From an uncultured bacterium (GTDB lineage: Bacteria; Planctomycetota; UBA1135; GCA-002686595), in assembly GCA_943787795.1 (NCBI GenBank), contig CALSNU010000005.1, forward strand, positions 192,001 to 256,000: 64,000 nucleotides of DNA, written 5' to 3'. Under the pieces are notes generated by a model. That model was given only the letters and a program-made list of their open reading frames with translations. It had not been told where the DNA came from and did not search any database. Positions within the stretch are counted from its first letter, which is position 1. Every line of letters begins with the position of its first letter. Positions 19,190-34,830 of the stretch are shown piece after piece. The position numbers and the translations under genes were made by a program.

Positions 19190-22100
19190 TTAGGACTTAC
19201 CGGTCTTCGCCCTCTTGGCCCGCTCCTCGTCGGTCAACTGATCCTCAAGGGCGGCCAGCATGGGCTTGAGATTCGCGAGCATCGAGGCCGCGGCGGACAT
19301 GGCGGAGCCCTTCTCCTCGAGGAGGCCCGAGCGGTCCGCGAGCAGCTCGTTCGCAGCCTCCAGCGCCGCCGTCAGCTCGTCGGCCTGAGTCTCCTGGTCG
19401 TTGAGGCGAGCGCTCGCGGCCTTCAGCCTCGCGTCGAGGTCCTCCGCCCGTTGCTCTGCCTTGGCGAGTCGCGCCGCCTGCTTCTTGGCCTCGGACCGAA
19501 GGGCGGTGATCTCCTTGGACTGCACCTTCTTCTCCTTGCGAGCCTCCGCGAGGCGGCCCTCGACGGCCTCGACGGCCTTCTGGCGCTCCTCGATCTCCTT
19601 GCGGAGCCCGGCGATCTCGGCCCCGGTGGCCTGCTCGAAGCTCTCGAACCTCTCGCGCTGCCCGGCCATCTCGCTGGTCCGTCGCTCGATCTCTGCGCCA
19701 GCCTCCTCGAGCGCGCGCGCGCGCTCGTTGGACTCGGCTTCGGCGGCCTCGAGGTGGCCCGCGATGCGGTCGCGCTCTCCGCCGAGGTTCTCGAGATCCT
19801 GCGTGAGGCGGGCTTCGTTCTCCCCGAGGCCTGCCACGACCTTGGCCTGCTCGTCGCGGAACGTCGCCATCGACTGCTCCGCGGCGTCGAGGGCCGCCTC
19901 GCGTTCACCGAGCCGCGTCGAGAGGTCGGCGGCCCGCTGGTCGGCGTTCGCGGCGGTGTCGCGGGCCTCGGCGAGGGCGCTGGAGACCTCCTGGAGTTGC
20001 CCGGAGGTCTGCTCCAGCTCCTGGTTCGTGCGCTGACTGAGCGCCTGGCTCTCCGAGAGCTGGCCCTCGAGGGCCTCCTGCTCGGCTTCGAGCGCGGCGC
20101 GCTGGGTGCCGAGCGCCTCGACCCGGGCCTCAAGGCCGGCGCGCTCCTCGCTGGTCCTCTGAAGCTCCTCGTCCGCGACGTTGGCGCGCTGGACCTCGGT
20201 CTCGATCGCAGCCTGAAGCGACTCGATCCTGGAGGAGAGGTCGGCGCGCTGGGCTTCGAGCTCCGTCGTCTGTTCGTTGGACTGGCGGCGCTCTGCCCCG
20301 AGCTGGTCGTTGAGCCGTTCGACGTCCGTCTCGAGGGCCGCTCCGGCCTCGAAGAGTTCATCACGCTCCGCGGCGATCGCGACCGCCTCCGACCTGGACT
20401 GGTCGAGCTGATGGGTCAGCTTGGCGAGGTCCTTCTCGAGGCCAGCGGCGTGCTCGGCGAGCGTCTCTCTGGAGCGCTCTCCATCGAGCGCTTCCGAGAC
20501 GGCGGCGTTGAGCTGGTTCTTCAGGTCGTCGGCCTCGACCGAGAGGGCCTCGGTCTGGCTCTGGAGGGCATCGCGGCGAGCGGCGAGCTCGGCGACCTTC
20601 TCCCCGGAGGCTTCCTCGGCGGCCGCGGCGCGCGCGGTCCGATCCTCGACCTCGGCCTGGAGCTCCTCGATGGTGGAGGAGAGCTGGGCCTCGGTGGCGG
20701 ACCTCTGCTCGTCGGCGGCGCGGGCCATGGCGGCGTGGCGCTCGACCTCGGCCTGGAGCTCCTCGATGTTGGAGGAGAGCTGGGCCTCGGTGGCGGACTT
20801 CTGCTCGTCGGCGGCGCGGGCCATGGCGGCGTGGCGCTCGACCTCGGCCTGGAGCTCCTCGATGTTGGAGGAGAGCTGGGCCTCGGTGGCGGACTTCTGC
20901 TCGTCGGCGGCGCGGGCCATGGTCGGCGTGGCGCTCGACCTCGGCCTGGAGCTCCTCGATGTTGGAGGAGAGCTGGGCCTCGGTGGCGGACTTCTGCTCG
21001 TCGGCGGCGCGGGCCATGGCGGCGTGGCGCTCGACCTCGGCCTGGAGCTCCTCGATGTTGGAGGAGAGCTGGGCCTCGGTGGCGGACTTCTGCTCGTCGG
21101 CGGCGCGGGCCATGGCGGCGTGGCGCTCGACCTCGGCCTGGAGCTCCTCGATGGTGGAGGAGAGCTGGGCCTCGGTGGCGGACTTCTGCTCGTCGGCGTC
21201 GCGGGCCATGGCGGCGTGGCGCTCGACCTCGGCCTGGAGCTCCTCGATGGTGGAGGAGAGCTCCTGCGCACGCTCAGCCTCATCTCCTCGGGCCGTGTTC
21301 GCCGCTTCAGCGGCTTCGAGCGCCTCGGCGAGCTTGAACCCCTCGGCCTCGAGGGCCTCGCTGAGTGCCTTCACGTCTCCCTCCAAGGCCGCGCGCGATT
21401 CGGCGGTCGCCTCGTGGGCGGCGGTTCGTTCGGCGAGCGCCGTCTCGACCTCCGTGGCGCGGGTGGAGGCGTCCTCCAGCTGAGCCTCGAGCGAGTGGAC
21501 GAGATCATCGACCTCTCGTTCGCGGGCTTCGGCCTGTTCACGGGCGGCTTCGGCGCGTCCTTCGGAGTCTGCCGAGATCTCGGCCACCTCGTCCTGGGAG
21601 GCGGCGAGCGCCTCACGGGCTTCGGTGAGCGCACCCTTGAGGTCGTTGATGGAGCCCGCAGCGACCTCCTGATCCTCGTCGAAGGTCTCGCGGAGGGCGG
21701 CGGCCTCTTGCTGCACGGCCCGGAGCTGCGCTGCGCTCTCGCTCGCCTCTTCGCGCGAGGTCTCGAGCTCTTGCTCGAGGCCGTCGATGCCTGTGCGGGC
21801 CGCGGACAGCTGCTCCTGGAGCTCTTCTGCCTGGCGAGCGTGCGCGTCGGTGGCCTCTTCGAGCGCGGCCTCGGCAGCTCCGGAGCGCTCCTGGCTGGAC
21901 GCGAGGTCACCCTCGAGCTGCTCGCACCGGTTGCGAGTCTCGGTGAGCGCGGTCTCCAGATGGGCGGCGCGCGCCTCGTGCTCCTCGCACACGGCGGTGA
22001 GGGAGGACTCGAGGTCGGCCCGGGCGCTCCGGCTGACCTCAAGGTCACCCTCGAGCTGCTCGCAGCGACCTCTGGATTCTTCGAGCTCGCCATGGAGCGC

Positions 22101-23408
22101 GTCGCCGCGCTCCTCGGCGAGCGTGAGCTCTGCCTCGAGCCTCTCGGCCTGGCGGCCAGCCTCTTCAAGCTCCTGCCCCAGCTCATCGCAGCGGTCCTTC
22201 GACTCGGTCAGCTGCTGGCCGAGCTCTTCGGCGCGGGCGACGTGCTCTGCAGCGGCCGCAGCCATCGCCTCCTCGACCTCGGCGTGCGCGGTCCGTGCCT
22301 CGGCCAGCTGTCCGTCAAGCTGCTCGCTGCGCTGCTCGGCCGACTGCAGGTTCGACTCGAGCTCGGCAGCCTTGGCCTGATGCTCCTCGTCGCTGGCTCC
22401 CATGGACGCCTCGAGGCGTGTGCAGGCCTCCTGGGAGGCGGCCAGCTGATCGGCGAGGGCGTCGCTGCGCTCGTCAGACTGCTGGGCGGCGGTCTCGAGC
22501 GCCTCGACCTGGGCCTCGAGCGTGACACGAGCCTCGCGGGCGAATTCCTCCTGGGCGGAGAGGGCCTCGGTCTGCTCTTCGAGGGACGTTGCCAGCTGGT
22601 CGCCCTGCTGGACGGCCGCCTCGAGCTCCGCGAGGGCGGTCTCGGCGTCGGTCCGGGCCCCCTCGAGCTCCTTCTGCGCCTCATCGCGGTCGGTCCGAAG
22701 CTCGTCGTTCTGGTCCTGGAGGCCGGCGGCCTCGGCCTGGAGGGTCGCGACGCGCTCGTCCGCTGCCTCGAGGTTCGCGGTGGACGAGGTCAACGCCTCA
22801 CGGACCTCTTCCAGCTGCTGCTCGGCGCCGGAGAGCTCATCCCGGAGCCTGCGGGCCTCGTCCTGGGTCGCGTCGAGGCGGTTGGAGGTCTCCCCGAGTT
22901 GACCCTCGAGCGGGCGCAGGGACTCGATGCGCGCGGTCAACTCGTCGATCACGGTGGTCTGACGCTCGAGCTCGACCTCCTTCTCGCGGGTGGCCTCGTG
23001 GATTCGTCCGCGCCATGCGGCCACATCGTCCTGGAACTGGGCCACCTCCCGGGGCCCCGTCTCCTCGACGGGGAACTCCGGAGACTCCACGGGCGCCTTC
23101 TCGGCGAACTTGGTCGAGATCCCCTCGTGGGCATCGAGGGCCTTCTGGAGGCGCCTCATCTGCCGTGTCTGCTCGCTCAGGCGGGTGCGGAGGGCGGTCT
23201 CCGACCGATCGAACTCGCTAATCACCCGCTGCACGCGGTCCTCCATCTGCACGTATACCTCGTAGCGTTCGCGCACCTGGCGGGTCATCTCTTTGGCCAG
23301 GGAGGCGCGTTCACGGCGGTTTCGGTGCTCGGCGACGGCAAAGGCGAGGAGGGCTCCGGCGACGGCTGAGCCGAGGCTCACAAGCATGGCGATGGCGGGG
23401 ATGGACAT
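19190..23408 (-). CDS. ~1400-aa N-terminally membrane-anchored coiled-coil protein, split by a 1-nt insertion at ~20923
   Basis: ORFs 20361..23543 and 19190..21283 join into one E/A/L/Q-rich heptad protein if the extra T in gccatggTcggcg is removed. TM segment IAMLVSLGSAVAGALLAFAVA follows ATG 23408. Confidence 0.85.
20645..21262 (-). repeat. 96-bp (32-aa) near-perfect intragenic tandem repeat, ~6.4 copies
   Basis: Unit AQLSS(N/T)IEELQAEVERHAAMARAADEQKSATE. ctcgacctcggcctggagc recurs at 20645, 20741, 20837, 20934, 21030, 21126 and 21222. Confidence 0.95.
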
Positions 23409-23748
23409 GGTCTCGATGTCGGAATCCACCGCCAGGCATCCGAAGACCGCCGTTCGAATCCACGCCAGGGGTTCCCAGGCGTCCCTGGACGAGACATTTC
23501 TCGGGGCTGCCCGATGCTCGACTGAGATCAAGGATCCATGCATCGCTTCGGGATCGCGCGGCGACTGCTTTCATGAGGAAGGAAGAGATCCAGGGGGCGC
23601 CACGGTCGGCGCCTGGTGCCCCCCGAGCGGGCGCTGCTCCTGCGGCCCTGCCCGATCCCTCCGAGCCCCCTCCCGAAGCCTCCGCAATGGTCGATCTCAG
23701 CCCCGAGACTACATCCTCATCGCACGAGGGAATGGCCGTGGGCCGCCC

Positions 23749-23926: not shown

Positions 23927-24502
23927 ATGAACCCCAGATCCGTTCAGGAAACATCCCTGCTCGCCAGGGTCGCCGATGGCGACCCCTCGGCCATTCGGGA
24001 TGTCCTCTCTCGCTACTCAGCGCTCGTCTGGTCGCTGTCTTCGAGCCTCTCGAAGGACCCGCACGAGGTCGAGGATGTGGTTCAGGACATCTTCGTGGAC
24101 GTTTGGCGCAGCGCCGCTCGCTACGACCCGGCCGTCGCCTCGGAGGCGACCTTCATCGCGACGATCGCGAGACGCAGGGTCATCGACCGTCGTCGCCGTG
24201 CCGGTCGGCGCGTGGACCCCGAGCCCCTCGATGAGGAGCTGGCGCCCGGCGCAGAGGACGAGGGCCTCCGGCAGGTGGACCTCGATGATGAGGCGCTCCA
24301 GGCGAGAGAGGCCGTGGCACAGCTCTCGGGCGACCGTCGCAGGGTTCTGGAGATGTCCGTGGTCGAGGGCCTCACCCATCGCGAGATCGCGGCGGACACC
24401 GGGATCCCGCTCGGGACCGTGAAGAGCCACATCCGGCGGGGCCTCGCCGAGGTCTCCGAGAAACTGAAGGCGCGTCGCAGCGCGACGGAGGACCGAGCAT
24501 GA
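23927..24502 (+). CDS. ECF sigma-70 factor (SigK-like)
   Basis: EDVVQDIFVDVWRSAARYDP, TIARRRVIDR, GLTHREIA...IPLGTVKSHIRRGL. ATG 23927 preferred over the long low-complexity extension. Confidence 0.93.
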   Translation: MNPRSVQETSLLARVADGDPSAIRDVLSRYSALVWSLSSSLSKDPHEVEDVVQDIFVDVWRSAARYDPAVASEATFIATIARRRVIDRRRRAGRRVDPEPLDEELAPGAEDEGLRQVDLDDEALQAREAVAQLSGDRRRVLEMSVVEGLTHREIAADTGIPLGTVKSHIRRGLAEVSEKLKARRSATEDRA

Positions 24503-25434
24503 AGGTCGGACCTGGAATGCCTTCCCATGACGGGGAGAGCCGCGAGGAGCTCGCGGCCATCGCCGCTCTCGAGGGGCTCGGCGTCCTCTCGGACAGTCAG
24601 CGGGCCCTCGTGGACGAGGATCGAGTCCGAGAGCTCGAGCACGCCGCGGGCGCGATCTTCACCGCTCTCTCCCGCTCGCAGGCGGAGCAGGCCCCGGCCC
24701 AGATTGTGGATCGGCTTGAGGGTCTGCTCTCAACCCAGGCCGCCGCGGACGCCCAGGATGCCCGCCTTCGCGGCCACTCCCATCTGCACGACACCCTGCG
24801 GGGTGTGACACAGCGAGCCCCTCACGAGCCGTCGTTCCCCCCTTCGCAACGAGACGCCGGGACGGGGCCCGAGCTCGACTCGGACGAGCGGAAGGGTGGG
24901 TCAAGCGACCTCGCTGCTCCCGCTGCCTCGGCGCCTTCAGGGCCCCGATTCCGCCTGGTGGGTGGCTGGCTGGCCGCCGCGGCGCTCCTGGTCGCGACGA
25001 TTGCGGCCTACGGCCGTATCGCCTCGCTCGAGGCGACCTACGGCGCGGGGTCAGCCGAGGCCCGGCGCAGCGAGATGATCGCCACGGCCGCAGACGTCGA
25101 GGTGTTGCCCTGGGCCACTGAGGGCGTCTCTGGAGACGTGACGTGGAGCGACGCGCGCAACGCGGGCTTCATGAGGATCGAAGGGCTCGTCCAGAATGAC
25201 CCCTCGGTCTCCCAGTATCAGCTCTGGATCTTCCGGGGCCTGGACCCCGCGACGGAGGCTCACCCCGTCAGCGGCGGCGTCTTCGACGTGGCGGGCGACG
25301 GCGAGGTGATCATTCCCATTGACGCCCAGCTCGAGCTCGGGCGCGCGGGACTCTTCGCCGTGACGGTCGAGGAGCCGGGCGGCGTGATGGTGTCGGAGCG
25401 CGAACAGATCGTGCTCGTCGCCAGCCGCGCCTGA
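24499..25434 (+). CDS. Anti-sigma factor (RskA family)
   Basis: ATGA overlap with the sigma gene, single TM (WLAAAALLVATIAAY), C-terminal YQLWI...PVSGGVFD...FAVTVEEPGG. Confidence 0.88.
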   Translation: MKVGPGMPSHDGESREELAAIAALEGLGVLSDSQRALVDEDRVRELEHAAGAIFTALSRSQAEQAPAQIVDRLEGLLSTQAAADAQDARLRGHSHLHDTLRGVTQRAPHEPSFPPSQRDAGTGPELDSDERKGGSSDLAAPAASAPSGPRFRLVGGWLAAAALLVATIAAYGRIASLEATYGAGSAEARRSEMIATAADVEVLPWATEGVSGDVTWSDARNAGFMRIEGLVQNDPSVSQYQLWIFRGLDPATEAHPVSGGVFDVAGDGEVIIPIDAQLELGRAGLFAVTVEEPGGVMVSEREQIVLVASRA

Positions 25435-25882
25435 GCCCTGGCCGCGGACTCCGGGCCGGCGCCAAGCCGACACCGAGTCGACGCGAGGGCCCGTTTGCAG
25501 GGAGGCGTTCTCCGCCCCGACGCCGAGGCCCAGGCTCGGCGGCCCGGCGCCGAAGCCCGTCTCCGGAGCCCGGCGCCGAAGCCCCGCGCGGAGCAGAGCG
25601 GCCTCTTCAAACGGGCGAGGTCGCTCCGGCGTGAGCGTCGCTTGCCCCGCGTGGCGGCCATCTCCGTGACGCCGCGCGGAGAGCGCATGGAGGCGCTCCG
25701 CGATCGGACGCCTGAGAGACCTCAGGGCTTCCGGTGGCTTGGGCCCGAGTCCGGGCCCTGATGGGAGCAGGCGGCGTGACCGACGGACGCTGCCGCGCGC
25801 GGTGGGGGCGGCAGGTCCTCCGTGCCCTTGCGCCCACGAGCGCCACCGGAGAGGTGGCGCGCTCGATCGCAGGGGCCGGCGC

Positions 25883-26923
25883 TCAGCTGAGGCCGACCAG
25901 CATGCGTGCGGACTGGACACCGTTGATGAGGTCCGTCGCGAACCCGTCGGCCCCGAGCTTCTTGGCGTCCTCCTCGCTCCGCAGCGCGGCGCCGCCCACA
26001 AGGACCGGGATCGTGCTGTCCCTCGAACCCAGATAGCTCGTCAGCGCATAGCGCTGGGCCACGAGCGTCGCCGACACGGCGATCACGTCGCACTCGTAGG
26101 CCGCGGCGGTCGCGTCGATCTCGTCGGCGGGGGTGTCGGCCCCGGCCAGCGCGACGCGCCATCCGTCCTGCTCGAGGAGCAGCGCGAAGGCCACCAGTCC
26201 GGTGTCGTGGGCATCGCCGGGGACGGCGGCGACCAGGACGGCCTTGCCGTTGCGCGTGGTCGCCGGGAGCGCGGCGGTGAGTCCGTGGAGGGCGCTGCGT
26301 AGCGTGGCGGTGATCACGTGCTCGGCGGCGACGCCCATCTCACCCACGTGCCAGCGACGACCGGCCTCTCGGGCTGCGGGCAGGAGGATGTCGACCACGG
26401 CTTCGTTCAGGCTGAAGGTGCCCGCTCGGACGCCTTCCAGCAGATAGTTCCGAGCGCTCGCCAGATCGCCGACGAGCGCGAGGTCGAACAGCTCCAGGGC
26501 TCGAGAGCCCTGCTGGAGGCCGGTGGACTGGGCGGCCGGCTCCTCCAGGGCCTTCGCAGCAGCGTCGAAGAACCGGTCGATGGAGGTGTCGTTCGTCCCT
26601 GGGAGCTGGGCCGTCAGCGTCTCCCGCATGCTCTCGAGCGCGACGAGGACGTCACCGGCCTCGACGTCGCGGGAGGTGATGACCGCTCGGAACCAGACCA
26701 TGTCGTCAGCGAAGAGCTTGGGGTCATCGGCCTCGAGGGCAGACGCGAGCGCCTCCAGCCGTGCGGAGAGCGCCTTGCGCCAGGAGTCAAACCCCGACTC
26801 GCCGTACCGCGTGTCCGAGGCCTCGACCTTCTCGAACAGGCGGGCCGTGGAGAGGCCGGCCAACCCGCGACTGGTGGTGCGGATGAGCTCTGCGGTGAAT
26901 TCAGCGGCTCGAGTCATGGTCAT
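25883..26923 (-). CDS. Cobalamin-binding sensor protein (globin-like N-domain, B12-binding_2, B12-binding), no DNA-binding domain
   Basis: WHVGEMGVAAEH matches the CarH W-x9-EH motif; GDAHDTG matches DxHxxG; Rossmann-type SAT...VLVGG. Confidence 0.85.
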   Translation of the reverse strand: MTMTRAAEFTAELIRTTSRGLAGLSTARLFEKVEASDTRYGESGFDSWRKALSARLEALASALEADDPKLFADDMVWFRAVITSRDVEAGDVLVALESMRETLTAQLPGTNDTSIDRFFDAAAKALEEPAAQSTGLQQGSRALELFDLALVGDLASARNYLLEGVRAGTFSLNEAVVDILLPAAREAGRRWHVGEMGVAAEHVITATLRSALHGLTAALPATTRNGKAVLVAAVPGDAHDTGLVAFALLLEQDGWRVALAGADTPADEIDATAAAYECDVIAVSATLVAQRYALTSYLGSRDSTIPVLVGGAALRSEEDAKKLGADGFATDLINGVQSARMLVGLS

Positions 26924-27608
26924 TCATCCCGGTGACGGTGGGAGATTCCCTGCGGTCAAGCCGCGGGGCCGTGTCCTGTGGCCTCTGTCGGGAACCCGCG
27001 CTCGCCTCTCGGAGCAGGCTCCGGGCGGCAAGCATGAGGCAGGGCACGACCACAGCGTATTCGATGGAGAGCGCCAGGTATCCCATCCAGCCGCCGGGAA
27101 CTGACGTGGCGCCGATCCTCGTGCCGGACCAGAAGGAGAAGGGGCCTCCAATAGCGCTGAGCAGGATCGCCAGGAGGTGCCGCCGGTTCAGCCAGGAGAG
27201 GGAGGAGTTGAGCAGGGAGCCGAACGCAACCCAGAGCGTGACGATCCAGGCGGGGGCCAGGAGCAGCCCACCAGCTGCCCCGCCGTCAGGAGCTCCGCCC
27301 GCGGCAGGTACCGGGAAGGCGATCCACCCTGAGGTTCGCAGGGCGGTGTCGAGGGCCAGTCCCAGCAGCCCGGCGAGGGCCCAGAGGCGCAGCTCGGCGC
27401 CCCGGTACGGTGTGAAACGGAGGTTGATCGGGAGCAAGAACGCGGCCGCCACCGGTCCGACCCACGGGACCCCTTCCGCAGCGCCGTAGACGCAGATGAA
27501 CCACACCACCTGGAAGACCGCGAAGTTGACGAGCTTCCCCGCCGTGCTCGGCGCCCAGGCTGAGGCAGCAGGCGCGGACGGGCCAGGGGGTGTGTCGTGA
27601 TCGGTCAA
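26901..27608 (-). CDS. DUF2878 family membrane protein
   Basis: NFAVFQVVWFICV...PAWIVTLWVAF...LNSSLSWL...GGPFSF. TTG start overlapping the cfa-like stop. Confidence 0.8.
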   Translation of the reverse strand: MTDHDTPPGPSAPAASAWAPSTAGKLVNFAVFQVVWFICVYGAAEGVPWVGPVAAAFLLPINLRFTPYRGAELRLWALAGLLGLALDTALRTSGWIAFPVPAAGGAPDGGAAGGLLLAPAWIVTLWVAFGSLLNSSLSWLNRRHLLAILLSAIGGPFSFWSGTRIGATSVPGGWMGYLALSIEYAVVVPCLMLAARSLLREASAGSRQRPQDTAPRLDRRESPTVTGMNDHDSSR

Positions 27609-28990
27609 CCGAGCGGAGCGAGCGTCGCCGCCACGGGGGGAGAGAAGGAGCGGCCTGCTCTGGCGTAGACGAGGTGAGCCACCGAGATATGGCGTTCGGC
27701 AAACCCGCCTTCGCAGTAGCAAAAGTAGAAGTCGAAGAGCCGCAGGAAGTCCTCGTCGAACCCCATGGCGAGCGCCTCTTCCCGGCGCCCACGGAGCGCA
27801 TCGCGCCAGGTGCGGAGCGTGGGCACGTAGTGGGTCCCGATGTCCTCCATGTGCACCGGGCGGAGGTCGCTGGAGCGAGACGCGGCCTGGGAGAGCGCGG
27901 TCACCGACGGGATACAGCTGCCGGGGAAGATGTGGCGCTGGATGAAGTCCACCGCCTTGCGGGCGCGCTCGAAGTGAGCGTCGTGAATCGTGATGGCCTG
28001 CATGGCGAGCGCTCCGCCGGGCTCGAGGAGGCGCGCACAGGTCTCGAAGAAGGTCCCGTAGTGGCGGGCGCCCACGGCCTCGATCATCTCCACGGAGACG
28101 ATCTTGGAGTATTGCCCTTTGAGGTCTCGGTAGTCTTTCAGGAGCACCTCGACCTGGTCCTCGAGGCCAGCCGCGGAGATGCGCTCCACGGCGAACGCGT
28201 GCTGTTCCTTTGAGATCGTGGTGGTGGTGACCTGGCAGCCGAACTTGAGGGCGGCGCGCCGCGCGAAGCCGCCCCAGCCGGTGCCGATCTCCAGCAGGTG
28301 GTCGCTCGGTCCGAGGTTCAACCGCTCGCAGAGGCGGTCAATCTTCGCGATCTGCGCGTCCTCGAGCGAGGCGTCCGCCCGCTCGTAGTAGGCCGACGAG
28401 TAGGTCATCGTCGGGTCGAGGAACAGCTGGAAGAAGTCGTTGGAGAGGTCGTAGTGCGCGGAGATGTTCTTCCGCGACCCTGAGCGACTGTTGTCGCGGA
28501 GCCAGTGGAAGGCCTTGAGCATGGGGAGAGAGAGCCGGGCGAGGCCCTTCTCCATTCCCTCGAGCGCGGTGTGGTTCGCCACCAGGACCCGCACGACGTC
28601 CGATGGCTCGGGAGAGGTCCACCAGCCGTACGCGTAAGCCTCGCCGGCGCCGACGCTGCCCCGGAGGGCGAGGGCGCTCCAGAAGCGCTCATCGTGGACG
28701 ATGACGACCCCGTGGGCATCGGAGCCGGCTCGCCTCATGCTCCCGCCAGGGGAGACCACGACGTCGGCGGCGTCGGGCAGGGGCGGCCTCCCGAAGACCT
28801 CGGAGCTGGAGGGGGTCTCAACCGTGAGCGACCCGTCGGCGATCCGCTTCAGCCGCGAGCGAACGGCGCGTTCGAGCAGAGAGGAACGCTCCGTGGGCGT
28901 GGGCCTGTTGGGGCCAGGCGCGGCCCCAGGGGGCTGCGTCTTCTGGTGCTCCGGGACGGGAGGCATCGTCTTCGAGTCAGTGAGGGTCAT
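27605..28990 (-). CDS. Cyclopropane-fatty-acid-synthase-family methyltransferase (UfaM/CfaS-like)
   Basis: NISAHYDLSNDFF, MTYSSA, LLEIGTGWGG, SVEMIEAVG, IFPG. Confidence 0.93.
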   Translation of the reverse strand: MTLTDSKTMPPVPEHQKTQPPGAAPGPNRPTPTERSSLLERAVRSRLKRIADGSLTVETPSSSEVFGRPPLPDAADVVVSPGGSMRRAGSDAHGVVIVHDERFWSALALRGSVGAGEAYAYGWWTSPEPSDVVRVLVANHTALEGMEKGLARLSLPMLKAFHWLRDNSRSGSRKNISAHYDLSNDFFQLFLDPTMTYSSAYYERADASLEDAQIAKIDRLCERLNLGPSDHLLEIGTGWGGFARRAALKFGCQVTTTTISKEQHAFAVERISAAGLEDQVEVLLKDYRDLKGQYSKIVSVEMIEAVGARHYGTFFETCARLLEPGGALAMQAITIHDAHFERARKAVDFIQRHIFPGSCIPSVTALSQAASRSSDLRPVHMEDIGTHYVPTLRTWRDALRGRREEALAMGFDEDFLRLFDFYFCYCEGGFAERHISVAHLVYARAGRSFSPPVAATLAPLG

Positions 28991-29023
28991 GGTGCGGACG
29001 GGGCCGCGCGCGGGGCGCGGTGC

Positions 29024-29824
29024 TCAGACGCTCTTCGGGTGAGAGAAGAACGGCGTGCGCTTGGTCCAAAGCCGGAGCGCCTGCCAGTAGATGGCCAGGA
29101 GGATCTTAGCGCTCATCCAGGGGTGCCGGAGCAGGCTCTTGCGTAGCTGTGGCGGTGTGAGGGGGCGCCGCTCCAGTTCGAACGCCACATCAAACACGCG
29201 CTCGTCATCGGGGCCGGTTCGGTTCTCCATGGCCACCCTCAGCGGGGATCCTGGCTGGGCGCCAGGGGCTGTGAAGCGCCATTGATAGCGGTGATCCATG
29301 TCGAAGAAGGGTGAGACGTGGAAGTCCTTCTCGAACCTCCACTCGAACCATTCGCCGTCACGCTCGGCCTCGGATGCGAGCAGGACGTACTGATGACGCT
29401 CGTTCCACGGGGTGTTGGTGATCTCCGCGACGATCGAGTGGAGGGTCTCGCCGTCGGCCTCGAAGAGGTAGTAGAAGGAGACCGGATTGAAGCAATACCC
29501 CAGGAGGGCGATCTGGGTGAGGAGCCGGATCGGGCCCTCGGGGGGGAGCTCGCCGGTCTCCCGGCGGACCCTCTCCCTGACGGCCTCGCGCAGCGGGCGG
29601 TCCGTTGGGCCGAGGAAATCACGTCGCCGGAAGGACCCCAGGTTGGGCCGCTCCACGCTCCAAAGCCAGGCTCCACGGAAGGCGTCATCGAGCTCCTCGA
29701 GGTCGAGCAGGAGCTCGAACACGCGGTAGGAGAACCGGTGGGGTCGAGGCTGGTGCCGTGCGTGGACCACGCGGCCCTCGTAGACGGCCGATGCACGCGC
29801 CGATGAGACCGGGGGGGCGCTCAT
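29024..29824 (-). CDS. DUF1365 family protein (UfaO-like)
   Basis: YEGRVVHAR..P..HRFSY, GYCFNPVSFY, EITNTPWNERH, KDFHVSPF, IYWQALRLW. Confidence 0.93.
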   Translation of the reverse strand: MSAPPVSSARASAVYEGRVVHARHQPRPHRFSYRVFELLLDLEELDDAFRGAWLWSVERPNLGSFRRRDFLGPTDRPLREAVRERVRRETGELPPEGPIRLLTQIALLGYCFNPVSFYYLFEADGETLHSIVAEITNTPWNERHQYVLLASEAERDGEWFEWRFEKDFHVSPFFDMDHRYQWRFTAPGAQPGSPLRVAMENRTGPDDERVFDVAFELERRPLTPPQLRKSLLRHPWMSAKILLAIYWQALRLWTKRTPFFSHPKSV

Positions 29825-31173
29825 CGGAAGGCGCCGGCGGTCTCCGGCGGACGGGCCGCCGAGGTCTCCTGGAGCCCGGGTCGGAGCTCCTCGGGTCTGG
29901 CCGGGAAGCCGGGCTCCACGCCGATCGCCTCGAGGACGCGTCGCGCGCTCTGGACGCCGTCCTCATGGAAGCCGTAGTGCCAGTAGGCGCCGCAATAGTG
30001 AACGCCGCGGACCCCGTCGATCTCCGCGTGCCGCCCCTGCGCCCTGACCGAGGCGGCGTCGTAGACGGGGTGGGAGAAGACGGTCTCCCGCACCACCTTG
30101 GACGGGTCGATACGGTCCTTGCAGTTGAGCGTCACGAACAGATCGTCGGGCCCTTCGATCGACTGGAGCTCGTTCATCCAGTAGGTGACCCGGACAAGCT
30201 CCCCCTCCGTTGGTGCGTTCGCCGGGACGTGCGCGTTCCAGGCGGCCCAGGCCGCCTTGCGCTTGGGCATGAGCGAGGCATCCGTGTGGAGGATGACCGA
30301 GTTCGGCTGGAAGCGAATCGCTCCCAGCACGTCCTTCTCGACGTTCGTCGGCTCCTCGAGCATGCCGAGGGCCTGGTCTGCGTGACAGGCGAGCACCACG
30401 CGGTCGAAGCGCTCTGGCGCCTTGCCGGCCACGGTCACCTCCACATCGCCGACGCCGCGTGCGCTGACACGCTCGACCGGGGAAGAGGTGCGGACTCGAT
30501 CCCCGAGGGGCTGGAGGAGCTTGTGCGCGTAGGCGCGGCTGCCGCCGCGCACCGTGAGCCAGGGCGGACGGTCGTCGACCTGCAGGAACCCGTGGTTGGC
30601 GAAGAATCGGACGAGCGTCCGCGCGGGGAATTCGAGGATCTCACCGGGCTTGCCGGACCAGACCGCGCACGCCATCGGGATCATGTGCCACTCGATAAAG
30701 GCCTTCGAGTAGCCGCCACGGCGCAGGAACTCGCCGAGGCTCGGACCAGGCTCACCCGCGGGCAGCTTGAGGAGCTCGGGGGCCTCCCTGTAGAAGCGCA
30801 AGATCCCGCGAATCATGCTCCAGAAGCGCGGCCTGAAGAGGTTGGTCCACTGGGCGAACAGGCTCGCCGTGCTGGTGCCGTTGTACTCGACGCCAGGCCC
30901 CTCCATCCGCGCGCTGAAGCTCATGTCGCTGGTGAGCCAGGGGACGTCGAGCTCGCGCAACAGCGAGCAGAACCCGGGGTAGGTTCGCTCGTTGAACACG
31001 ATGAACCCAGTGTCCACCACGTAGTCGCGACCGTTCACTCGCACCTCGCGCGTGGCCGTGTGCCCGCCGATCCGGTCCCGCGATTCCAGGACGCAGACGT
31101 CGTGCCCTGCGTCATGGAGACGCCGGGCCGTCACCATGCCGGCGACCCCGCTACCTACGACGGCGACCTTCAA
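29821..31173 (-). CDS. FAD-dependent oxidoreductase (COG2907, UfaD-like)
   Basis: VAVVGSGVAG, RIGGH, VDTGFIVFNERTYP, YWMNELQ, YCGAYWHYGFHEDG. TTG start. Confidence 0.92.
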   Translation of the reverse strand: MKVAVVGSGVAGMVTARRLHDAGHDVCVLESRDRIGGHTATREVRVNGRDYVVDTGFIVFNERTYPGFCSLLRELDVPWLTSDMSFSARMEGPGVEYNGTSTASLFAQWTNLFRPRFWSMIRGILRFYREAPELLKLPAGEPGPSLGEFLRRGGYSKAFIEWHMIPMACAVWSGKPGEILEFPARTLVRFFANHGFLQVDDRPPWLTVRGGSRAYAHKLLQPLGDRVRTSSPVERVSARGVGDVEVTVAGKAPERFDRVVLACHADQALGMLEEPTNVEKDVLGAIRFQPNSVILHTDASLMPKRKAAWAAWNAHVPANAPTEGELVRVTYWMNELQSIEGPDDLFVTLNCKDRIDPSKVVRETVFSHPVYDAASVRAQGRHAEIDGVRGVHYCGAYWHYGFHEDGVQSARRVLEAIGVEPGFPARPEELRPGLQETSAARPPETAGAFR

Positions 31174-31233
31174 GGCTGGTGGCAGGGCAGCATCCCGGGG
31201 GACGGAGGGCGGGGCGGGCGGCGCCGGAGCGCC

Positions 31234-32211
31234 TCAGCGCTCGATTCGCCGCGCCGCGAGCGCGCGCTCGGGCACCGGACGCAGGTCCCAGACGAGGCCC
31301 ACGGAGGAGAGCGCCTTCAGGATGTAGTACGACACGTCGAACTCCCACCAGTAGAAGCCCTGTCGCGCGGACGCGGGATAGTGGTGGTGGTTGTTGTGCC
31401 AGCCTTCGCCCAGGGTGATGAGCGCGATGAGGAAGCTGTTACGGCTGGTGTCCTTGGTCGCGAAGCGGCGAGTGCCAAAAACGTGCGCCAACGAGTTCAC
31501 GGTGAACGTTCCGTGGTAGAGCGCGATGGTCGAGACCACGAAGCCCCAGACGAGCATCTGCCAGCCGTTCGTCCCGAGGCCGGGGGCCCACTTCTCGAGC
31601 GCGACGCCCAGCAGGAACACGGAGACACCCAGCAAGGTGGGGGCGACAATGTCGAAGCGGTCGAGGAAGCGCAGCTCCGGGAACTTCGAGAAGTCCTTCA
31701 CCCGCTCGAGTCGCGTCGCGAAGTTACCGCGGTCGAGCACCCAGCCGACGTGGCTCCAGAAGAAGCCGCGCTGGGTCGGCGAGTGGATGTCCTCGGGCTC
31801 GTCGGAGAACTCGTGGTGGTGGCGGTGATGGGCGGCCCACCACAGCGGGCCCCGCTGCGCAGCGCTGGCCCCGATCGCCGCGAGACAAAACTGTCCGAAG
31901 CGTGAGGTGCGGAAGGCACGGTGGCTGAAGTACCGGTGGTAGCCCGCCGTGATCGCGAACATCCGCAGCACGTAGAGCCCGACCGCGACGCCGACGGCGA
32001 CCCAGGAGAAGCCCACCACGAACACAAACAGGCAGGCCGCGTGCATGGCGAGGAAGGGGACAACGCGTCCCCAGTCGATCTTCGACTTGGTGGCGACGTC
32101 CTCGAGGGCGGCCACGTCCTCGGGAGCAGCGACCGCGTCGTTCGCGGTGCCGTTCCAGGAATCGAACCACCGAATCACGGCGAGGGACGAGCGCTTGAGA
32201 GCAGCTTGCAT
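31234..32211 (-). CDS. Membrane fatty-acid (delta-9-type acyl-CoA) desaturase
   Basis: His boxes HRYFSH, HHRHHH and GEGWHNNHH. Confidence 0.93.
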   Translation of the reverse strand: MQAALKRSSLAVIRWFDSWNGTANDAVAAPEDVAALEDVATKSKIDWGRVVPFLAMHAACLFVFVVGFSWVAVGVAVGLYVLRMFAITAGYHRYFSHRAFRTSRFGQFCLAAIGASAAQRGPLWWAAHHRHHHEFSDEPEDIHSPTQRGFFWSHVGWVLDRGNFATRLERVKDFSKFPELRFLDRFDIVAPTLLGVSVFLLGVALEKWAPGLGTNGWQMLVWGFVVSTIALYHGTFTVNSLAHVFGTRRFATKDTSRNSFLIALITLGEGWHNNHHHYPASARQGFYWWEFDVSYYILKALSSVGLVWDLRPVPERALAARRIER

Positions 32212-33323
32212 CAGGAGTTCACTTCTTGGCCGACCGAACCGTCCGCGTTCGCGGGCGAGGTGCTGGCTGTATCAACTGTAGTGGGGGCGAGACGGTAGTG
32301 AGAGACGGCCCACTCCGACCCGTTGCGGAAGCCGAAGAGCTCCTCGCAAGCGAGGAAGAAGATGCGCCAGCGCTGGAGCCATGTCCCAGCCGCCGCACCA
32401 TAGGTGTCTCTTAGCACGGGCATGATGGCGTCTTTGCGGTTTTCGAGGTTCTCTCTCCAGAGTTTAGCTGTCCTCGAATAGTGGCGACCATTGACCACAT
32501 CGTGCTGCTCGACGGTGAAGGGCAGCGAGTCGCGCTGGGTGAGGGCCACGAGCAGATCATCGGCGGGCATCATGCCGCCGGAGAAGAAGTGCTCGCTCAT
32601 CCAGTCGGTGTCGTCCTTCACATCGAAGGGGTAGTTCAGCGTCTTGTGGGTGAAGACGTGGATGAACATGCGACCTGCGTCACCGAGCCACCCGCGGGCA
32701 CGACCGAGGAGCTCGGGCCAGTTCCGCATGTGCTCGAACATCTCCACGGAGACGATCCTGTCGTAGCGGAACCCCTCGGGGCGCCCCTGGAGCGCGTCGA
32801 ACTCGTTCATGTCGGCCGTGATGACCTCGACGTTCGTCAGCCCCCGCTCCTCGGCGCACTCGAGGATGAAGCGGCGCTGGGGCGCCGAGTTGGAGACCGC
32901 GGTGATGGTCGAGTTCGGGTAATGGGCGGCCATCCACAGCGTGAGTGAGCCCCATCCGCAGCCCATCTCAAGGACGGCCTGGCCGTCCGCGAGCTGGGCG
33001 CGCTCGCAGGTGAGCTCCAGCATGCGGGCCTCCGCCGTGCCCAGGTCCTCGTCGCCGCGCTCGAAGAAGCAGGAGCTGTACTTGAGGTGAGGCCCGAGGG
33101 ACTTCAGGAAGAACCCGGGGGGGACCTCGTAGTGCTGCTCGTTCGCCTTCTCGGGCACGTCAGCCACCGGTCCGCGCTCCATCTCCTCGATCCACGCGTC
33201 GGTGGAGCTCGTCGGACTCGCCGCCTCGTCGTCGAGACGTTGCACCAGGAGCCGCCGGACGCCCATCCGGAGGAGCGGCAGGGGGACGAGGCCCTTGTCG
33301 ACGAATTTCAGCGCGGTCTTCAT
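32211..33323 (-). CDS. Second Cfa-family SAM methyltransferase (coclaurine-N-methyltransferase-like subgroup)
   Basis: ANEQHYEVP, LKYSSC, LEMGCGWGSL, SVEMFEHMRN, FFSGGMMP. ATG 33323; TGATG overlap with the desaturase. Confidence 0.9.
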   Translation of the reverse strand: MKTALKFVDKGLVPLPLLRMGVRRLLVQRLDDEAASPTSSTDAWIEEMERGPVADVPEKANEQHYEVPPGFFLKSLGPHLKYSSCFFERGDEDLGTAEARMLELTCERAQLADGQAVLEMGCGWGSLTLWMAAHYPNSTITAVSNSAPQRRFILECAEERGLTNVEVITADMNEFDALQGRPEGFRYDRIVSVEMFEHMRNWPELLGRARGWLGDAGRMFIHVFTHKTLNYPFDVKDDTDWMSEHFFSGGMMPADDLLVALTQRDSLPFTVEQHDVVNGRHYSRTAKLWRENLENRKDAIMPVLRDTYGAAAGTWLQRWRIFFLACEELFGFRNGSEWAVSHYRLAPTTVDTASTSPANADGSVGQEVNS

Positions 33324-33450
33324 GGCAACGTGGGGGCGGTGATGGGCCTTGGTTCGGGGCTCTGATTCAGGGCCGCAGATTCGGGGCGCAGGCGAAGCGA
33401 CGGTCCGGCGCGGGTGCGGAGCGCGGCGGCCGACCTCTGCCTGCGTGATC

Positions 33451-33476
33451 TTCGCCCGGTGGCTCCCGGCGGATGA
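33451..33476 (-). promoter_or_regulatory. Putative ECF (SigK-type) promoter TCATCC-N15-GCGAA for the fatty-acid-modification operon
   Basis: Plus strand reads ttcgc-ccggtggctcccggc-ggatga, ~130 nt upstream of ATG 33323. Confidence 0.7.
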
Positions 33477-33627
33477 GCCGAGGTGCCCGCCCAGCGGGCG
33501 CAAAGGGTAAGGGACCGCGGCGGCCGCGGGGATTCTTGACCGCCTCCAGTGTCCCGGAGTTCGGCCCTCCCCCGGTGGGGTCTGGGTCATGATGCTGAGG
33601 AAGGCCACAGCCGGGGAGGGGCAGGGC

Positions 33628-33653
33628 TCATCCGGCCCCGGGCGCACGGCGAA
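33628..33653 (+). promoter_or_regulatory. Putative ECF (SigK-type) promoter TCATCC-N15-GCGAA for the divergent hydrolase
   Basis: tcatcc-ggccccgggcgcacg-gcgaa, with the same boxes and spacing as the opposite-strand copy. Confidence 0.7.
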
Positions 33654-33753
33654 CCCCCTCAGCGGTGGAGGGTCGAGGGGTCGCTCCACGGCCCCGCGCC
33701 TCGTCGCGAGCGTAAGTTGATTCCAGAGCGCAGGCTGCGCAGGTGAAGGGCCG

Positions 33754-34830
33754 GTGATGCGTACAAGATCGGTAACAGAAGGCGCCCCCAGGGGCGGTCA
33801 AGCGTTGAGGTGGCTCCTGGTCGTTGCGGCCTCGGGACTCATGGTCTCGGGGGCGGTGATCGGCGGCTGCGGCTCGATGGCGGTGGAGGAGGTCAAGCAG
33901 GAGACCCTGTCGCTGCCGAAGAACGCTCGGCTCCTCGAGCACCTCAGAGCTGGAGTCCTCACGGGCACCGGGGAGCCTTGGATGGCGGCCTACCTGCCCT
34001 CCCTGCCGCTCGACGCCCGTGCTGCAGGCTCTGAGGCTCCTCCGGTGAGCGAGGCCCCCGGCCCCATCGTGCTGGTCCACGGGACCCCGGATGGCATGGG
34101 TGCCTGGACCCGGGTCCTCTTCGGTGAGGACGGCCTGGCGGGCCAGGAGGACATCTACGCCCTCGAGGTGCTGGGGCACGGCATGCTCGGGGTCGAAGAG
34201 GGGACCGTGACCTTCCAGCGCTGTGCGGATCACGTGGCGGCCACGCTCGGGGCGCTTGGCCTGACCGGGGTGACCCTGGTGGGAAACTCCTACGGCGGTG
34301 AGTTTTGCTGGCGCGCCGCCCTCGATCACCCCGATCTGATCTCGAAGGTGGTGCTGATCGACTCCTCGGGCCTGCCCCGGACCCGGGAGCAGTTCCTGAG
34401 CGAGGAGGTCAAGATGCGCGAGTGGTCCATCGCCCGCCTGGGGTACCTCGCCAACACCGAGCCTCGGGTGGCCTCGGCGCTGGACCCGCACTTCGACGGC
34501 GCCGCTGACCCGGGGCGGGTCAACGAGGTCTTCCTTGCGCTTCAGAACCGCGGGAACTGGAACGCGATGATCGACCTCGTCCGGGACGAGAACGGGTCCC
34601 GGGCGCTGGAGCTGGCGGGCTTGGACGCGCCGACGCTGCTCATCTGGGGTGAGCTCGACCAGGCCTATCCCCCCGCGACGTTCGGGGCCACCTTCGCTGA
34701 GCGGATCCCCTCGGCGCGGCTCGTCGTCGTGGAGGGGGCGGGCCATTACCCGCACGAGCAGTCACCCGCGCGGGTGGCTCGCGAGATCCTGGCCTTCCAT
34801 CGGTCGGGCCTCGGCGGCGCCGGCCGTTGA
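33754..34830 (+). CDS. Exported (lipoprotein-like) alpha/beta hydrolase
   Basis: Hydrophobic N terminus with IGG-C, LVHG, GNSYGG, IWGELD, AGHYPH. Confidence 0.85.
   Translation: MMRTRSVTEGAPRGGQALRWLLVVAASGLMVSGAVIGGCGSMAVEEVKQETLSLPKNARLLEHLRAGVLTGTGEPWMAAYLPSLPLDARAAGSEAPPVSEAPGPIVLVHGTPDGMGAWTRVLFGEDGLAGQEDIYALEVLGHGMLGVEEGTVTFQRCADHVAATLGALGLTGVTLVGNSYGGEFCWRAALDHPDLISKVVLIDSSGLPRTREQFLSEEVKMREWSIARLGYLANTEPRVASALDPHFDGAADPGRVNEVFLALQNRGNWNAMIDLVRDENGSRALELAGLDAPTLLIWGELDQAYPPATFGATFAERIPSARLVVVEGAGHYPHEQSPARVAREILAFHRSGLGGAGR

Follow-up and report, generated by a model that had tools for sequence, protein, structure and literature searches.

In a 64,000-nt stretch of an uncultured planctomycete genome (GenBank assembly GCA_943787795.1, contig CALSNU010000005.1, positions 192,001 to 256,000 of the forward strand), hereafter called the window and the source of all positions given below, we analyzed a cluster in which the genes for an extracytoplasmic function (ECF) sigma factor and its anti-sigma factor converge on an operon of lipid-modifying enzymes that ends with a vitamin B12-binding protein. 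A preliminary description of this DNA, made from the sequence, had proposed that the cluster makes furan fatty acids (FuFAs) under the control of a SigK-type sigma factor and a cobalamin photosensor. A Pfam search of the window recovered every gene listed there, at the same coordinates and in the same order, and the gene family assignments used here are all but certain.

The sigma factor gene (23927..24502, plus strand), whose ATG start at 23927 is conserved across the genus, encodes a SigK-like protein of 191 amino acids with matches to the Pfam families Sigma70_r2 (1.1e-16), Sigma70_r4_2 (1.2e-15) and Sigma70_ECF. It overlaps by 4 nt the gene for an RskA-type anti-sigma factor (24499..25434, plus strand; RskA_C, 3.8e-10). 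The operon that converges on this pair lies on the minus strand and is transcribed in the order CMAS2, desaturase, flavoprotein, DUF1365, CMAS1, DUF2878 and B12 protein. Its first gene, CMAS2 (32211..33323; Pfam CMAS, 3.3e-37), encodes an S-adenosylmethionine (SAM) methyltransferase of 370 amino acids that is a candidate FufM-like enzyme; the longest open reading frame (ORF) here is 32211-33689(-), and alignment of relatives places the conserved start at ATG 33323, residue 123 of the long ORF. There follow a membrane fatty-acid desaturase (31234..32211; FA_desaturase, 3.3e-21), a FAD-dependent flavoprotein resembling amine oxidases and phytoene desaturases that is a UfaD-like candidate (29821..31173; Amino_oxidase, 7.8e-28, and NAD_binding_8), a DUF1365 protein of the UfaO family (29024..29824; 3.1e-81, 272.9 bits) and CMAS1, a SAM methyltransferase of the cyclopropane fatty acid (CFA) synthase family and UfaM-like candidate (27605..28990; CMAS, 1.2e-85). 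The last two genes encode a DUF2878 membrane protein (26901..27722; 4.8e-34), whose true start is uncertain and whose longest ORF overlaps the end of CMAS1 by 118 nt, and the B12 protein (25883..26923, likely start 26917). Neighboring genes overlap by 1 nt (CMAS2/desaturase), 4 nt (flavoprotein/DUF1365) and 17-23 nt (DUF2878/B12 protein), with gaps of 33 and 60 nt elsewhere; the operon had thus correctly been called largely translationally coupled. Across a 430-bp spacer from CMAS2 lies a divergent alpha/beta hydrolase gene (33754..34830, plus strand; Abhydrolase_1 and Abhydrolase_6), the product of which has, by eye, a signal-peptide- or lipobox-like N-terminus. The interval of the preliminary description (23927..34830) ends at the stop codon of this hydrolase gene, which that description had left unnamed; the genes it did name within the interval stand.

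The anti-sigma factor consists of an N-terminal cytoplasmic part, one membrane span (by eye) and a C-terminal RskA_C domain, which scores 40.6 bits against a cut-off of 29.4 and bears out the earlier assignment of the pair to the RskA type. No second RskA_C match occurs in the genome of the window. The order of ECF sigma factor and then RskA_C anti-sigma factor, with a 4-nt overlap, is the arrangement of SigK-RskA systems; the zinc-binding, cupin-bearing ChrR type of anti-sigma factor (RpoE-ChrR, ECF11) is not what the window carries.

The B12 protein is built of a photoglobin domain (residues 1-135), a four-helix bundle with a Wx9EH motif and a Rossmann B12 domain, and matches the Pfam families B12-binding_2 and B12-binding (the latter at 6.3e-14). 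Wx9EH is the four-helix cap signature of CarH-type light-sensing modules. In an alignment of 28 members of the family, W191, E201, H202 and H239 are invariant, as is G236 of the lower-ligand histidine motif, with D237 nearly so; the paper describing photocobilins names a conserved Trp61 and Glu71-His72 (PMC10979010). AlphaFold2 modeled both the whole protein and the separately folded N-terminal domain with a predicted local distance difference test score (pLDDT) of 92. A profile of residues 1-135 retrieved PDB entries 8j2x and 8j2w (2.7e-9), 8j2y (1e-6) and, after these, allophycocyanins, and a Foldseek search with the N-terminal domain returned phycobiliproteins and the Saccharothrix syringae photocobilins 8j2w and 8j2x at template modeling (TM) scores of 0.66-0.79, with E-values of just 1.6e-3 to 2e-2. 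The B12 half matches structurally the cobalamin-binding light-sensor domain of Thermus CarH.

No MerR/helix-turn-helix or other DNA-binding domain was found in the B12 protein with Pfam or NCBIfam, and the NCBIfam CarH model aligns only over its positions 83-262 of 274, the B12 half (79.8 bits, cut-off 400). We therefore rejected the reading of this protein as a CarH/LitR-type regulator, given the lack of a DNA-binding domain and the globin at its N-terminus. A canonical anti-sigma fold for the N-terminal domain was likewise rejected, since the domain is a globin. The cobalamin photosensor proposed in the preliminary description is thus upheld as far as the B12 light-sensor module goes and is to be corrected in type: by domain architecture and predicted fold, the protein is a standalone photocobilin-type photoreceptor with an N-terminal globin, which would bind adenosylcobalamin (AdoCbl) and might bind biliverdin. 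The combination of photoglobin and B12 bundle was predicted by Schneider et al. (PMC8717448), and Zhang et al. describe the photocobilin as a B12 and biliverdin photoreceptor able to act on partners through protein contacts (PMC10979010). In an index of 5.8 billion proteins, 46 relatives were retrieved at E <= 1e-3; the best 38 are full-length look-alikes, among which the named ones belong to Planctomycetota, including the cultured Saltatorellus ferox Poly30 (64% identity; L066/L036), which carries the locus as well, and the next matches are MerR-B12 proteins.

The enzymes of the operon comprise, at the level of families, one member each of UfaM, UfaD, UfaO and FufM, in agreement with the enzyme set that had been named earlier. 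As reported for the known pathway, UfaM is a SAM methylase that methylates phospholipid-bound vaccenate, UfaD is a FAD/NAD-binding, phytoene-desaturase-like protein that forms the methyl diene, UfaO carries DUF1365 and inserts O2-derived oxygen to close the furan, and FufM puts on a second methyl group; the finished FuFA is consumed by singlet oxygen (PMC7380195). CMAS1 and CMAS2 share 27% identity. The closest solved relatives of CMAS1 are CFA synthases (1.1e-52). CMAS2 groups not with CFA synthases but with coclaurine-N-methyltransferase-like proteins, its best solved relative being the plant coclaurine N-methyltransferase (3.2e-61, versus 1.2e-20 for CFA synthase). The Arabidopsis protein AT4G33110 is also coclaurine-N-methyltransferase-like, and the likeness of CMAS2 to FufM is transitive only, by way of such plant proteins; FufM is reported to be 38% identical to AT4G33110 (PMC10940516). 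The DUF1365 gene is present in a single copy in the genome. The desaturase reaches 88 bits against the NCBIfam DesA model (cut-off 400), and we infer that it supplies substrate to the other enzymes. We also observed a DUF1295 (steroid-reductase-like) membrane protein in the operons of other genera (loci L042, L043, L045 and L058); it is absent from the window.

The preliminary description had left the linkage of sigma factor, B12 protein and operon to be checked in relatives, and the gene neighborhoods bear it out both within the genus and well beyond it. All 17 other genomes of the genus encode a full-length homolog of the B12 protein. In all 10 same-genus stretches the order is UvrD, hydrolase, CMAS2, desaturase, flavoprotein, DUF1365, CMAS1, (DUF2878), B12 protein and convergent rskA-sigK, and the arrangement is thus not due to chance. 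The hydrolase adjoins the operon in each of these stretches and is also present in L043 and L129, the operon includes the desaturase within the genus as well as in L041, L045, L058 and L075, and DUF2878 follows CMAS1 in relatives too.

When one genome was scanned per species, 80 loci with full-length photocobilin homologs emerged, from Planctomycetota (including Phycisphaerae and Thermoguttaceae), Gammaproteobacteria/Chromatiales, Eisenbacteria, Acidobacteriota and others. Neighboring genes were located by tblastn with the proteins of the window; several loci end at contig ends, and part of the 80 come from the same genomes as a separately examined set of relatives (G-numbered). A sigK homolog lies within 2 kb of the photocobilin gene in 40 loci, at least one ufa-type gene is present in 29, and both occur in 19, which leaves 10 loci with ufa genes only. 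The 40 sigK-linked loci are arranged in four ways, namely convergent (26), sigK then B12 gene (6), B12 gene then sigK (6) and divergent (2), and such differing arrangements argue for selection on proximity. In a quick maximum-likelihood tree of 79 homologs, sigK- or ufa-linked members occur in several deep clades, and one Phycisphaerales clade of 16 is without them.

The gene after sigK nearly always overlaps it by 4 nt, and what occupies this position varies. Among the 40 loci, 24 have a full RskA as the partner of sigK, 5 a short, soluble "mini-RskA" of 63-103 amino acids and 2 the photocobilin itself (L105 and L122, with a 4-nt overlap); in 9, nothing recognizable was found. Within the G-numbered set, a 4-nt overlap of sigK and the photocobilin gene is seen in L045 too, and mini-RskAs occur in L048 and L050. 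Of 14 short ORFs, 8 matched a hidden Markov model (HMM) of the first 100 residues of RskA with E-values of 4.5e-6 or lower, compared with a best value of 0.11 among 280 shuffled sequences; the one in L108 is perhaps a full-length gene that is split and was left out of the mini-RskA count. An hhalign comparison of the RskA alignment with one mini-RskA ORF was weak (E = 0.066). The occurrence of a mini-RskA that has no sensor beside a photocobilin that is only a sensor, together with the photocobilin in the anti-sigma slot at three loci, is the main argument for the photocobilin acting on the sigma system.

Shorter B12-domain ORFs of another kind lie 2-3 kb from the ufa operon in two genomes, at L058 (G022:C41) 7889-8410 and at G035:C26:45520-45963, with the photocobilin elsewhere or not found; the one frame scanned with Pfam gave no match. 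Another set of shorter B12-domain ORFs (~335-345 amino acids) stands back to back with a rhodopsin paralog in G002:C55, G012:C1:1934670-1936264 and G014:C59, and these paralogs are ~32-34% identical to the rhodopsin of the window's genome.

A second line of evidence comes from a promoter-like motif with the consensus (G/T)CATCC-N15-17-CGAA. Two GGCTCATCC-N16-CGAA copies, in divergent orientation, are located in the CMAS2/hydrolase spacer. One, a CATCC-N16-CGAA preceded by GGCT (33451..33475, minus strand), is 127 nt upstream of the CMAS2 start, and the other (33629..33653, plus strand) is 100 nt upstream of the hydrolase ORF. The form CTCATCC-N16-CGAA has just 10 matches in the 4.7-Mb genome, and these are two of them. 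Both copies are kept in 6 of the 11 genus loci (the window and L031-L035); the other five carry forms with one mismatch, a count made without a chance control. Across the 80 loci, the motif has 104 matches, compared with 36.3 on average (maximum 45) in 30 dinucleotide shuffles, and 35 copies are co-oriented with a mapped gene and no more than 400 nt upstream of it, compared with 2.0 (maximum 5) in the shuffles. Solitary photocobilin genes have the motif 14-28 nt upstream (L094, L107, L112, L121, L126 and L130), and the UfaD-like gene has it 36-69 nt upstream in three Chromatiales loci (L091, L114 and L123). In L056, where sigK, rskA and the genes for the flavoprotein, DUF1365 protein and CMAS enzyme follow one another on one strand, a GCATCC-N16-CGAA lies 145 nt before sigK. 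On these grounds, we consider it probable that the motif is the promoter of the SigK-like sigma factor. A further copy, GCATCC-N17-CGAAT (29351..29376, minus strand), is located within the DUF1365 gene and is kept in all 11 genus loci although its 17-nt spacer varies; it may be an internal promoter for CMAS1, DUF2878 and the B12 gene, or a coincidence of coding sequence.

The same motif ties the operon to a wider set of genes, in support of the earlier idea. Of 70 matches to the short motif in the genome, 41 have a downstream ORF, 22 of these lie outside long ORFs, and 20 were scanned with Pfam; four of the downstream genes were then re-tested in relatives. The motif was found upstream of the gene for a fasciclin-domain protein in 21 of 30 loci, for a rhodopsin in 7 of 13, for a glutathione peroxidase in 10 of 24, these being the ten whose alignments reach the N-terminus, and for a CIA30-domain protein in 6 of 7. 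For all four genes, the boxes and their distance are conserved and the spacer drifts. The rhodopsin gene, which is bacteriorhodopsin-like (G000:C1:885227-885991(-)), has a GGCATCC-N16-CGAA ~150 nt upstream; among close orthologs with upstream DNA, 7 of 8 keep the motif at this distance, compared with none of four paralogs at ~30% identity. The motif-bearing fasciclin gene (G000:C6:131124-132026(-)) encodes two fasciclin domains, and in G037 (L169) a fasciclin gene is divergent from sigK-miniRskA-photocobilin. MPT70 and MPT83, the hallmark of the mycobacterial SigK regulon, are reportedly fasciclin proteins as well. Light raises the expression of SigK-regulon antigen genes in Mycobacterium kansasii (PMC9861118). 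Taken together, FuFA-type lipids, a rhodopsin and a peroxidase suit a program for daylight and photo-oxidative conditions. Other families found downstream of the motif (SDR, DAO, Band 7, EamA, DUF547, OmpA-like, malate dehydrogenase and others) were not used as regulon members. Elsewhere on the same contig as the fasciclin gene, a CIA30-domain gene and an ORF of 110 amino acids with no known family flank a second divergent motif pair, its copies ~200 bp apart (G000:C6:139312-140964).

Taken loosely as a whole, the chain from light through a SigK-like sigma factor to modified lipids, that is, a conserved, SigK-driven, light-linked lipid module, seems to us about evenly balanced between right and wrong. 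Its parts are held with differing confidence. That the products of the operon include methylated or furan fatty acids is a prediction we lean toward. Direct action of the photocobilin on SigK, on the N-terminal domain of RskA or on both is also predicted, and here we are more hesitant. As a wider and equally tentative reading, photocobilins would be the light-sensing partners of a widespread family of SigK-like ECF sigma factors, gating the sigma factor either directly or through the RskA N-terminal domain, as a light-switched anti-sigma or anti-anti-sigma factor, and repeatedly replacing the membrane sensor of RskA in a series from full to mini to none; in Planctomycetota, Gammaproteobacteria and Acidobacteriota, the sigma factor would drive a photoprotective regulon that covers furan-type lipids, glutathione peroxidase and fasciclin as well as a rhodopsin. 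The recurrent pairing of sensor and sigma factor in several phyla suggests an undescribed route for light to switch on a sigma factor.

Under this proposal, RskA would hold the sigma factor in the dark with the AdoCbl-loaded photocobilin as a co-inhibitor, and in genomes without RskA the photocobilin itself would be the inhibitor. Light from UV to green would break the Co-C bond, alter the assembly state of the photocobilin and free the sigma factor, which would then transcribe the operon from the (G/T)CATCC-N16-CGAA promoter. The enzymes would convert phospholipid-bound monounsaturated chains into methyl-branched and dienoic forms and from there into mono- and dimethyl furan fatty acids, scavengers of singlet oxygen. 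The freed sigma factor would also turn on the exported hydrolase and the unlinked fasciclin, rhodopsin, glutathione peroxidase and CIA30 genes, and since the photocobilin gene itself would be in the regulon, fresh dark-state protein would reset the switch.

Several observations weigh against the proposal of a light-gated SigK system. The sigma factor scores only 111.3 bits against the NCBIfam SigK model NF007228 (cut-off 226), and its 191 residues include no cysteine, so that the redox pair reported as conserved in SigK (ECF18/19-type) sigma factors (PMC7826278, PMC7509140) is missing. A search for the exact (G/T)CATCC-CGAA motif before the window's sigK found none; a conserved, sigma-70-like TATGAT box stands there. 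Counted over the whole window, the short motif shows no significant enrichment (4 matches versus 1.62 expected, with 7 of 100 shuffles reaching 4), and most of its 70 genome-wide matches are probably due to chance. The photoglobin domain matches no known anti-sigma fold in Foldseek, and heme oxygenase (PF01126) was not found in the 85%-complete genome, which makes a bilin chromophore doubtful. As for the enzymes, the UfaM, UfaD and UfaO assignments are candidates at the family level, with orthology to the Rhodobacter sphaeroides proteins only presumed, and the histidine boxes of the desaturase look Delta9-like by eye; should the enzyme indeed be of the Delta9 type, another positional isomer would result.

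The comparative evidence has its own counterweights. In 30 of the 80 loci, tblastn found neither sigK nor ufa genes near the photocobilin gene. Among 61 relatives, DUF1365 was found in 32 and RskA_C in 34; 6 of the 61 have a photocobilin and no DUF1365 match (G024, G031, G036, G037, G058 and the incomplete G003), and G033, G035, G059 and G060 have DUF1365 and no full-length photocobilin. G037, which is 93% complete, even has sigK-miniRskA-photocobilin without a DUF1365 match. The sigma factor, the sensor and the lipid genes can thus exist apart. Moreover, the relatives are kin and not independent, and counts across them overstate the support. In four marine metatranscriptome runs from one study, 28-36% of the sampled words are present, and contigs from these RNA libraries (>= 99% identity, depth ~3-7) cover pieces of all genes, the intergenic spacer and part of the gap at 25435-25882. 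Because the contigs also span intergenic DNA, and DNA carry-over is possible, nothing on promoters, transcription start, strand or level can be read from them; they record presence in RNA libraries only.

The alternative that we weighed most heavily, while still thinking it unlikely, makes the photocobilin a mere passenger of the SigK regulon: RskA, which has an extracytoplasmic domain of its own, would free the sigma factor upon an envelope or lipid-damage signal, and the photocobilin would, in the light and by protein contacts, tune something else, such as one of the operon's enzymes or an unlinked target. Such a role would suit a protein encoded by the last gene of the operon, found beside ufa genes without sigK in 10 of the 80 loci and preceded by the putative promoter of the sigma factor where its gene is solitary, and photocobilins are reported to regulate enzymes, e.g., a diguanylate cyclase, through protein contacts (PMC10979010). 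A passenger role, however, leaves unexplained why the photocobilin gene adjoins sigK in 40 of 80 loci and in four orientations, and why it follows sensor-less mini-RskAs or takes the coupled anti-sigma slot (L045, L105 and L122); in G037, moreover, sigK-miniRskA-photocobilin is retained in a genome with no DUF1365 gene. Less probable still is a partner switch in which the photocobilin acts as an anti-anti-sigma factor, its light state binding the cytoplasmic N-terminal domain of RskA or mini-RskA and pulling it off SigK. The seven sensor-less mini-RskAs between or beside sigK and the photocobilin gene fit this version, as does the link between the Saccharothrix photocobilin and STAS/SpoIIE partner-switch proteins (PMC10979010), but in L045, L105 and L122 no RskA of any length was found beside the pair, and there would be nothing to switch.

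Two further alternatives concern the chemistry rather than the switch. We think it rather improbable, though less so than the partner switch, that, in place of FuFAs, the operon yields acyl chains modified in other ways (cyclopropane, mid-chain methyl or methylene, conjugated dienes). The best named and solved relatives of CMAS1 are indeed cyclopropane fatty-acid synthases, the likeness to UfaM, UfaD and UfaO is at the family level only, and the accessory genes of the RSP1087-1089 type differ, with DUF1295 found in L043, L045 and L058 and absent from the window; the separate FufM-like methylase, on the other hand, suits a dimethyl FuFA. We give very little credence to the idea that the B12 protein works for the two methyltransferases as a corrinoid methyl carrier or a B12 sensor and is not a photoreceptor. 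Some databases do label homologs "methanogenic corrinoid protein MtbC1", and there are weak matches to NCBIfam corrinoid-protein models. Nevertheless, the Wx9EH and histidine signature of light-sensing CarH-type modules is invariant, the best structural matches of the B12 half are CarH light-sensor domains, the B12 module is fused to a photoglobin, and CMAS enzymes take SAM directly.

Several of the elements seen here are already known from other systems. In Rhodobacter (Cereibacter) sphaeroides, an ECF sigma factor, RpoE, with its anti-sigma factor ChrR controls ufaM and the ufaD-ufaO operon (RSP1091-1087), whose SAM methylase, FAD desaturase-like protein and DUF1365 protein build furan fatty acids on phospholipids, and in R. 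palustris a second methylase, FufM, leads to the dimethyl form (PMC7380195). The window differs in having an RskA-type instead of a ChrR-type anti-sigma factor, another promoter motif and all of the enzymes in one operon, to which a membrane desaturase, DUF2878 and the B12 photoreceptor are added, and it has no short-chain dehydrogenase/reductase (SDR) or DUF1295 gene. The M. tuberculosis SigK-RskA locus, with its mpt70/mpt83 regulon, resembles the window in the coupling of an RskA_C anti-sigma factor to the sigma factor and, as noted above, in the fasciclin genes; the window's sigma factor differs in falling below the NCBIfam cut-off and lacking the cysteine pair, and the pair here faces the operon in convergent orientation. 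The mycobacterial locus is not known to include a photoreceptor. The preliminary description had put a homologous gene set beside sigK-rskA in M. tuberculosis, presumably Rv0446c-Rv0449c. The autoregulation of sigK from the promoter of the neighboring Rv0449c operon is published (PMC7509140), and L056 and G040 show the same single-strand order.

Light control of related genes has also been described. In Pseudomonas, light induces a ufaM-containing cluster (phrB, SDR, FAD oxidoreductase and ufaM) through class II LitR and a short light-oxygen-voltage (LOV) protein (PMC9758184). That cluster uses a DNA-binding LitR repressor, a flavin mononucleotide (FMN)-LOV sensor and a sigma-70 promoter, whereas the window has an ECF sigma factor and a B12/photoglobin protein and no DNA-binding photoreceptor. 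In Streptomyces (LitR-LitS) and Myxococcus (CarH with CarQ-CarR), B12 light sensing and an ECF sigma factor take part in one light response (PMC11519972, PMC8156234); in CarH/LitR systems, the B12 protein is a MerR-type repressor that binds DNA at promoters, in contrast to the window's B12 protein, which has no DNA-binding domain. Photocobilins (SasPcob and AbDPcob) and the photoglobin family have been described as well, with standalone forms reported to act through protein contacts (PMC8717448, PMC10979010). Their published contexts, in the parts of those papers available to us, are STAS/SpoIIE/PP2C proteins, two-component proteins and a diguanylate cyclase, whereas the partners in the window would be an ECF sigma factor, RskA and a lipid operon; compared with the published photocobilins, the window protein carries its globin at the N-terminus, and its binding of a bilin is doubtful.

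FuFA genes under an ECF sigma factor, the M. tuberculosis SigK locus, light-induced ufaM clusters, DNA-binding B12 photoreceptors working with ECF sigma factors, and photocobilins are thus known already. The new element is the conserved and variably arranged coupling of a photocobilin to a SigK-like sigma factor and to a full, mini or absent RskA. We found no paper linking a photoglobin or photocobilin to an ECF sigma factor, RskA or ufa genes, in a search to which subscription journals were closed and in which supplements were covered partly or not at all. The accessible text of the photoglobin paper has no "ECF" and mentions sigma factors only for SpoIIE/STAS (PMC8717448); the main text of the ECF classification, as far as it is accessible, has no "B12" or "cobalamin", and the part of its supplement available to us names DUF1365 only under ECF11. 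With light-controlled ufaM clusters in print for Pseudomonas (PMC9758184) and FuFA genes known beside ECF sigma factors, the combination as a whole is not as new as the preliminary description took it to be. With this and the other corrections made above, the earlier interpretation is partly supported and its idea is broadly right.

ECF sigma factors are among the commonest signaling devices of bacteria, and their inputs are mostly unknown. If the proposal of a light-gated SigK system is true, a B12/photoglobin photoreceptor controlling an ECF sigma factor by protein contact would be a new class of input, and light would become a candidate signal for the SigK-RskA family, the stimulus of which has been called obscure (PMC9861118). 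For standalone photocobilins, which have been studied until now with a surrogate enzyme, this would provide a natural partner as well as a physiological output, and non-phototrophic marine planctomycetes would be seen to ready their membranes, peroxide defense and rhodopsin for daylight. A soluble sensor, a mini-anti-sigma factor, a sigma factor and a promoter would also make an attractive small green-light gene switch.

Outside the genes, the stretch offered few recognizable elements. The convergent gap between the stop codons of rskA and the photocobilin gene (25435-25882, 448 bp) was examined for a Pfam-positive ORF, an Rfam match and a terminator-like hairpin, none of which was found. No Rfam family matched anywhere in the stretch, and there is accordingly no cobalamin riboswitch; a simple scan of it returned 0 sigma-70-like promoters and 2 terminator-like sites (3.6 expected), none of them convincing. 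The G+C content is 64-73% along the profiled part of the window, and long spurious ORFs are therefore common. On the other side of sigK, and conserved beside it in the genus, lies a coiled-coil ORF of 1060 amino acids (20361-23543(-)) with three repeats of ~33 amino acids, followed in its C-terminal third by an arginine- and proline-rich triple repeat that seems to be the same repeat DNA read in another frame. This off-frame repeat may reflect a frameshift or an assembly slip in the tandem repeat.

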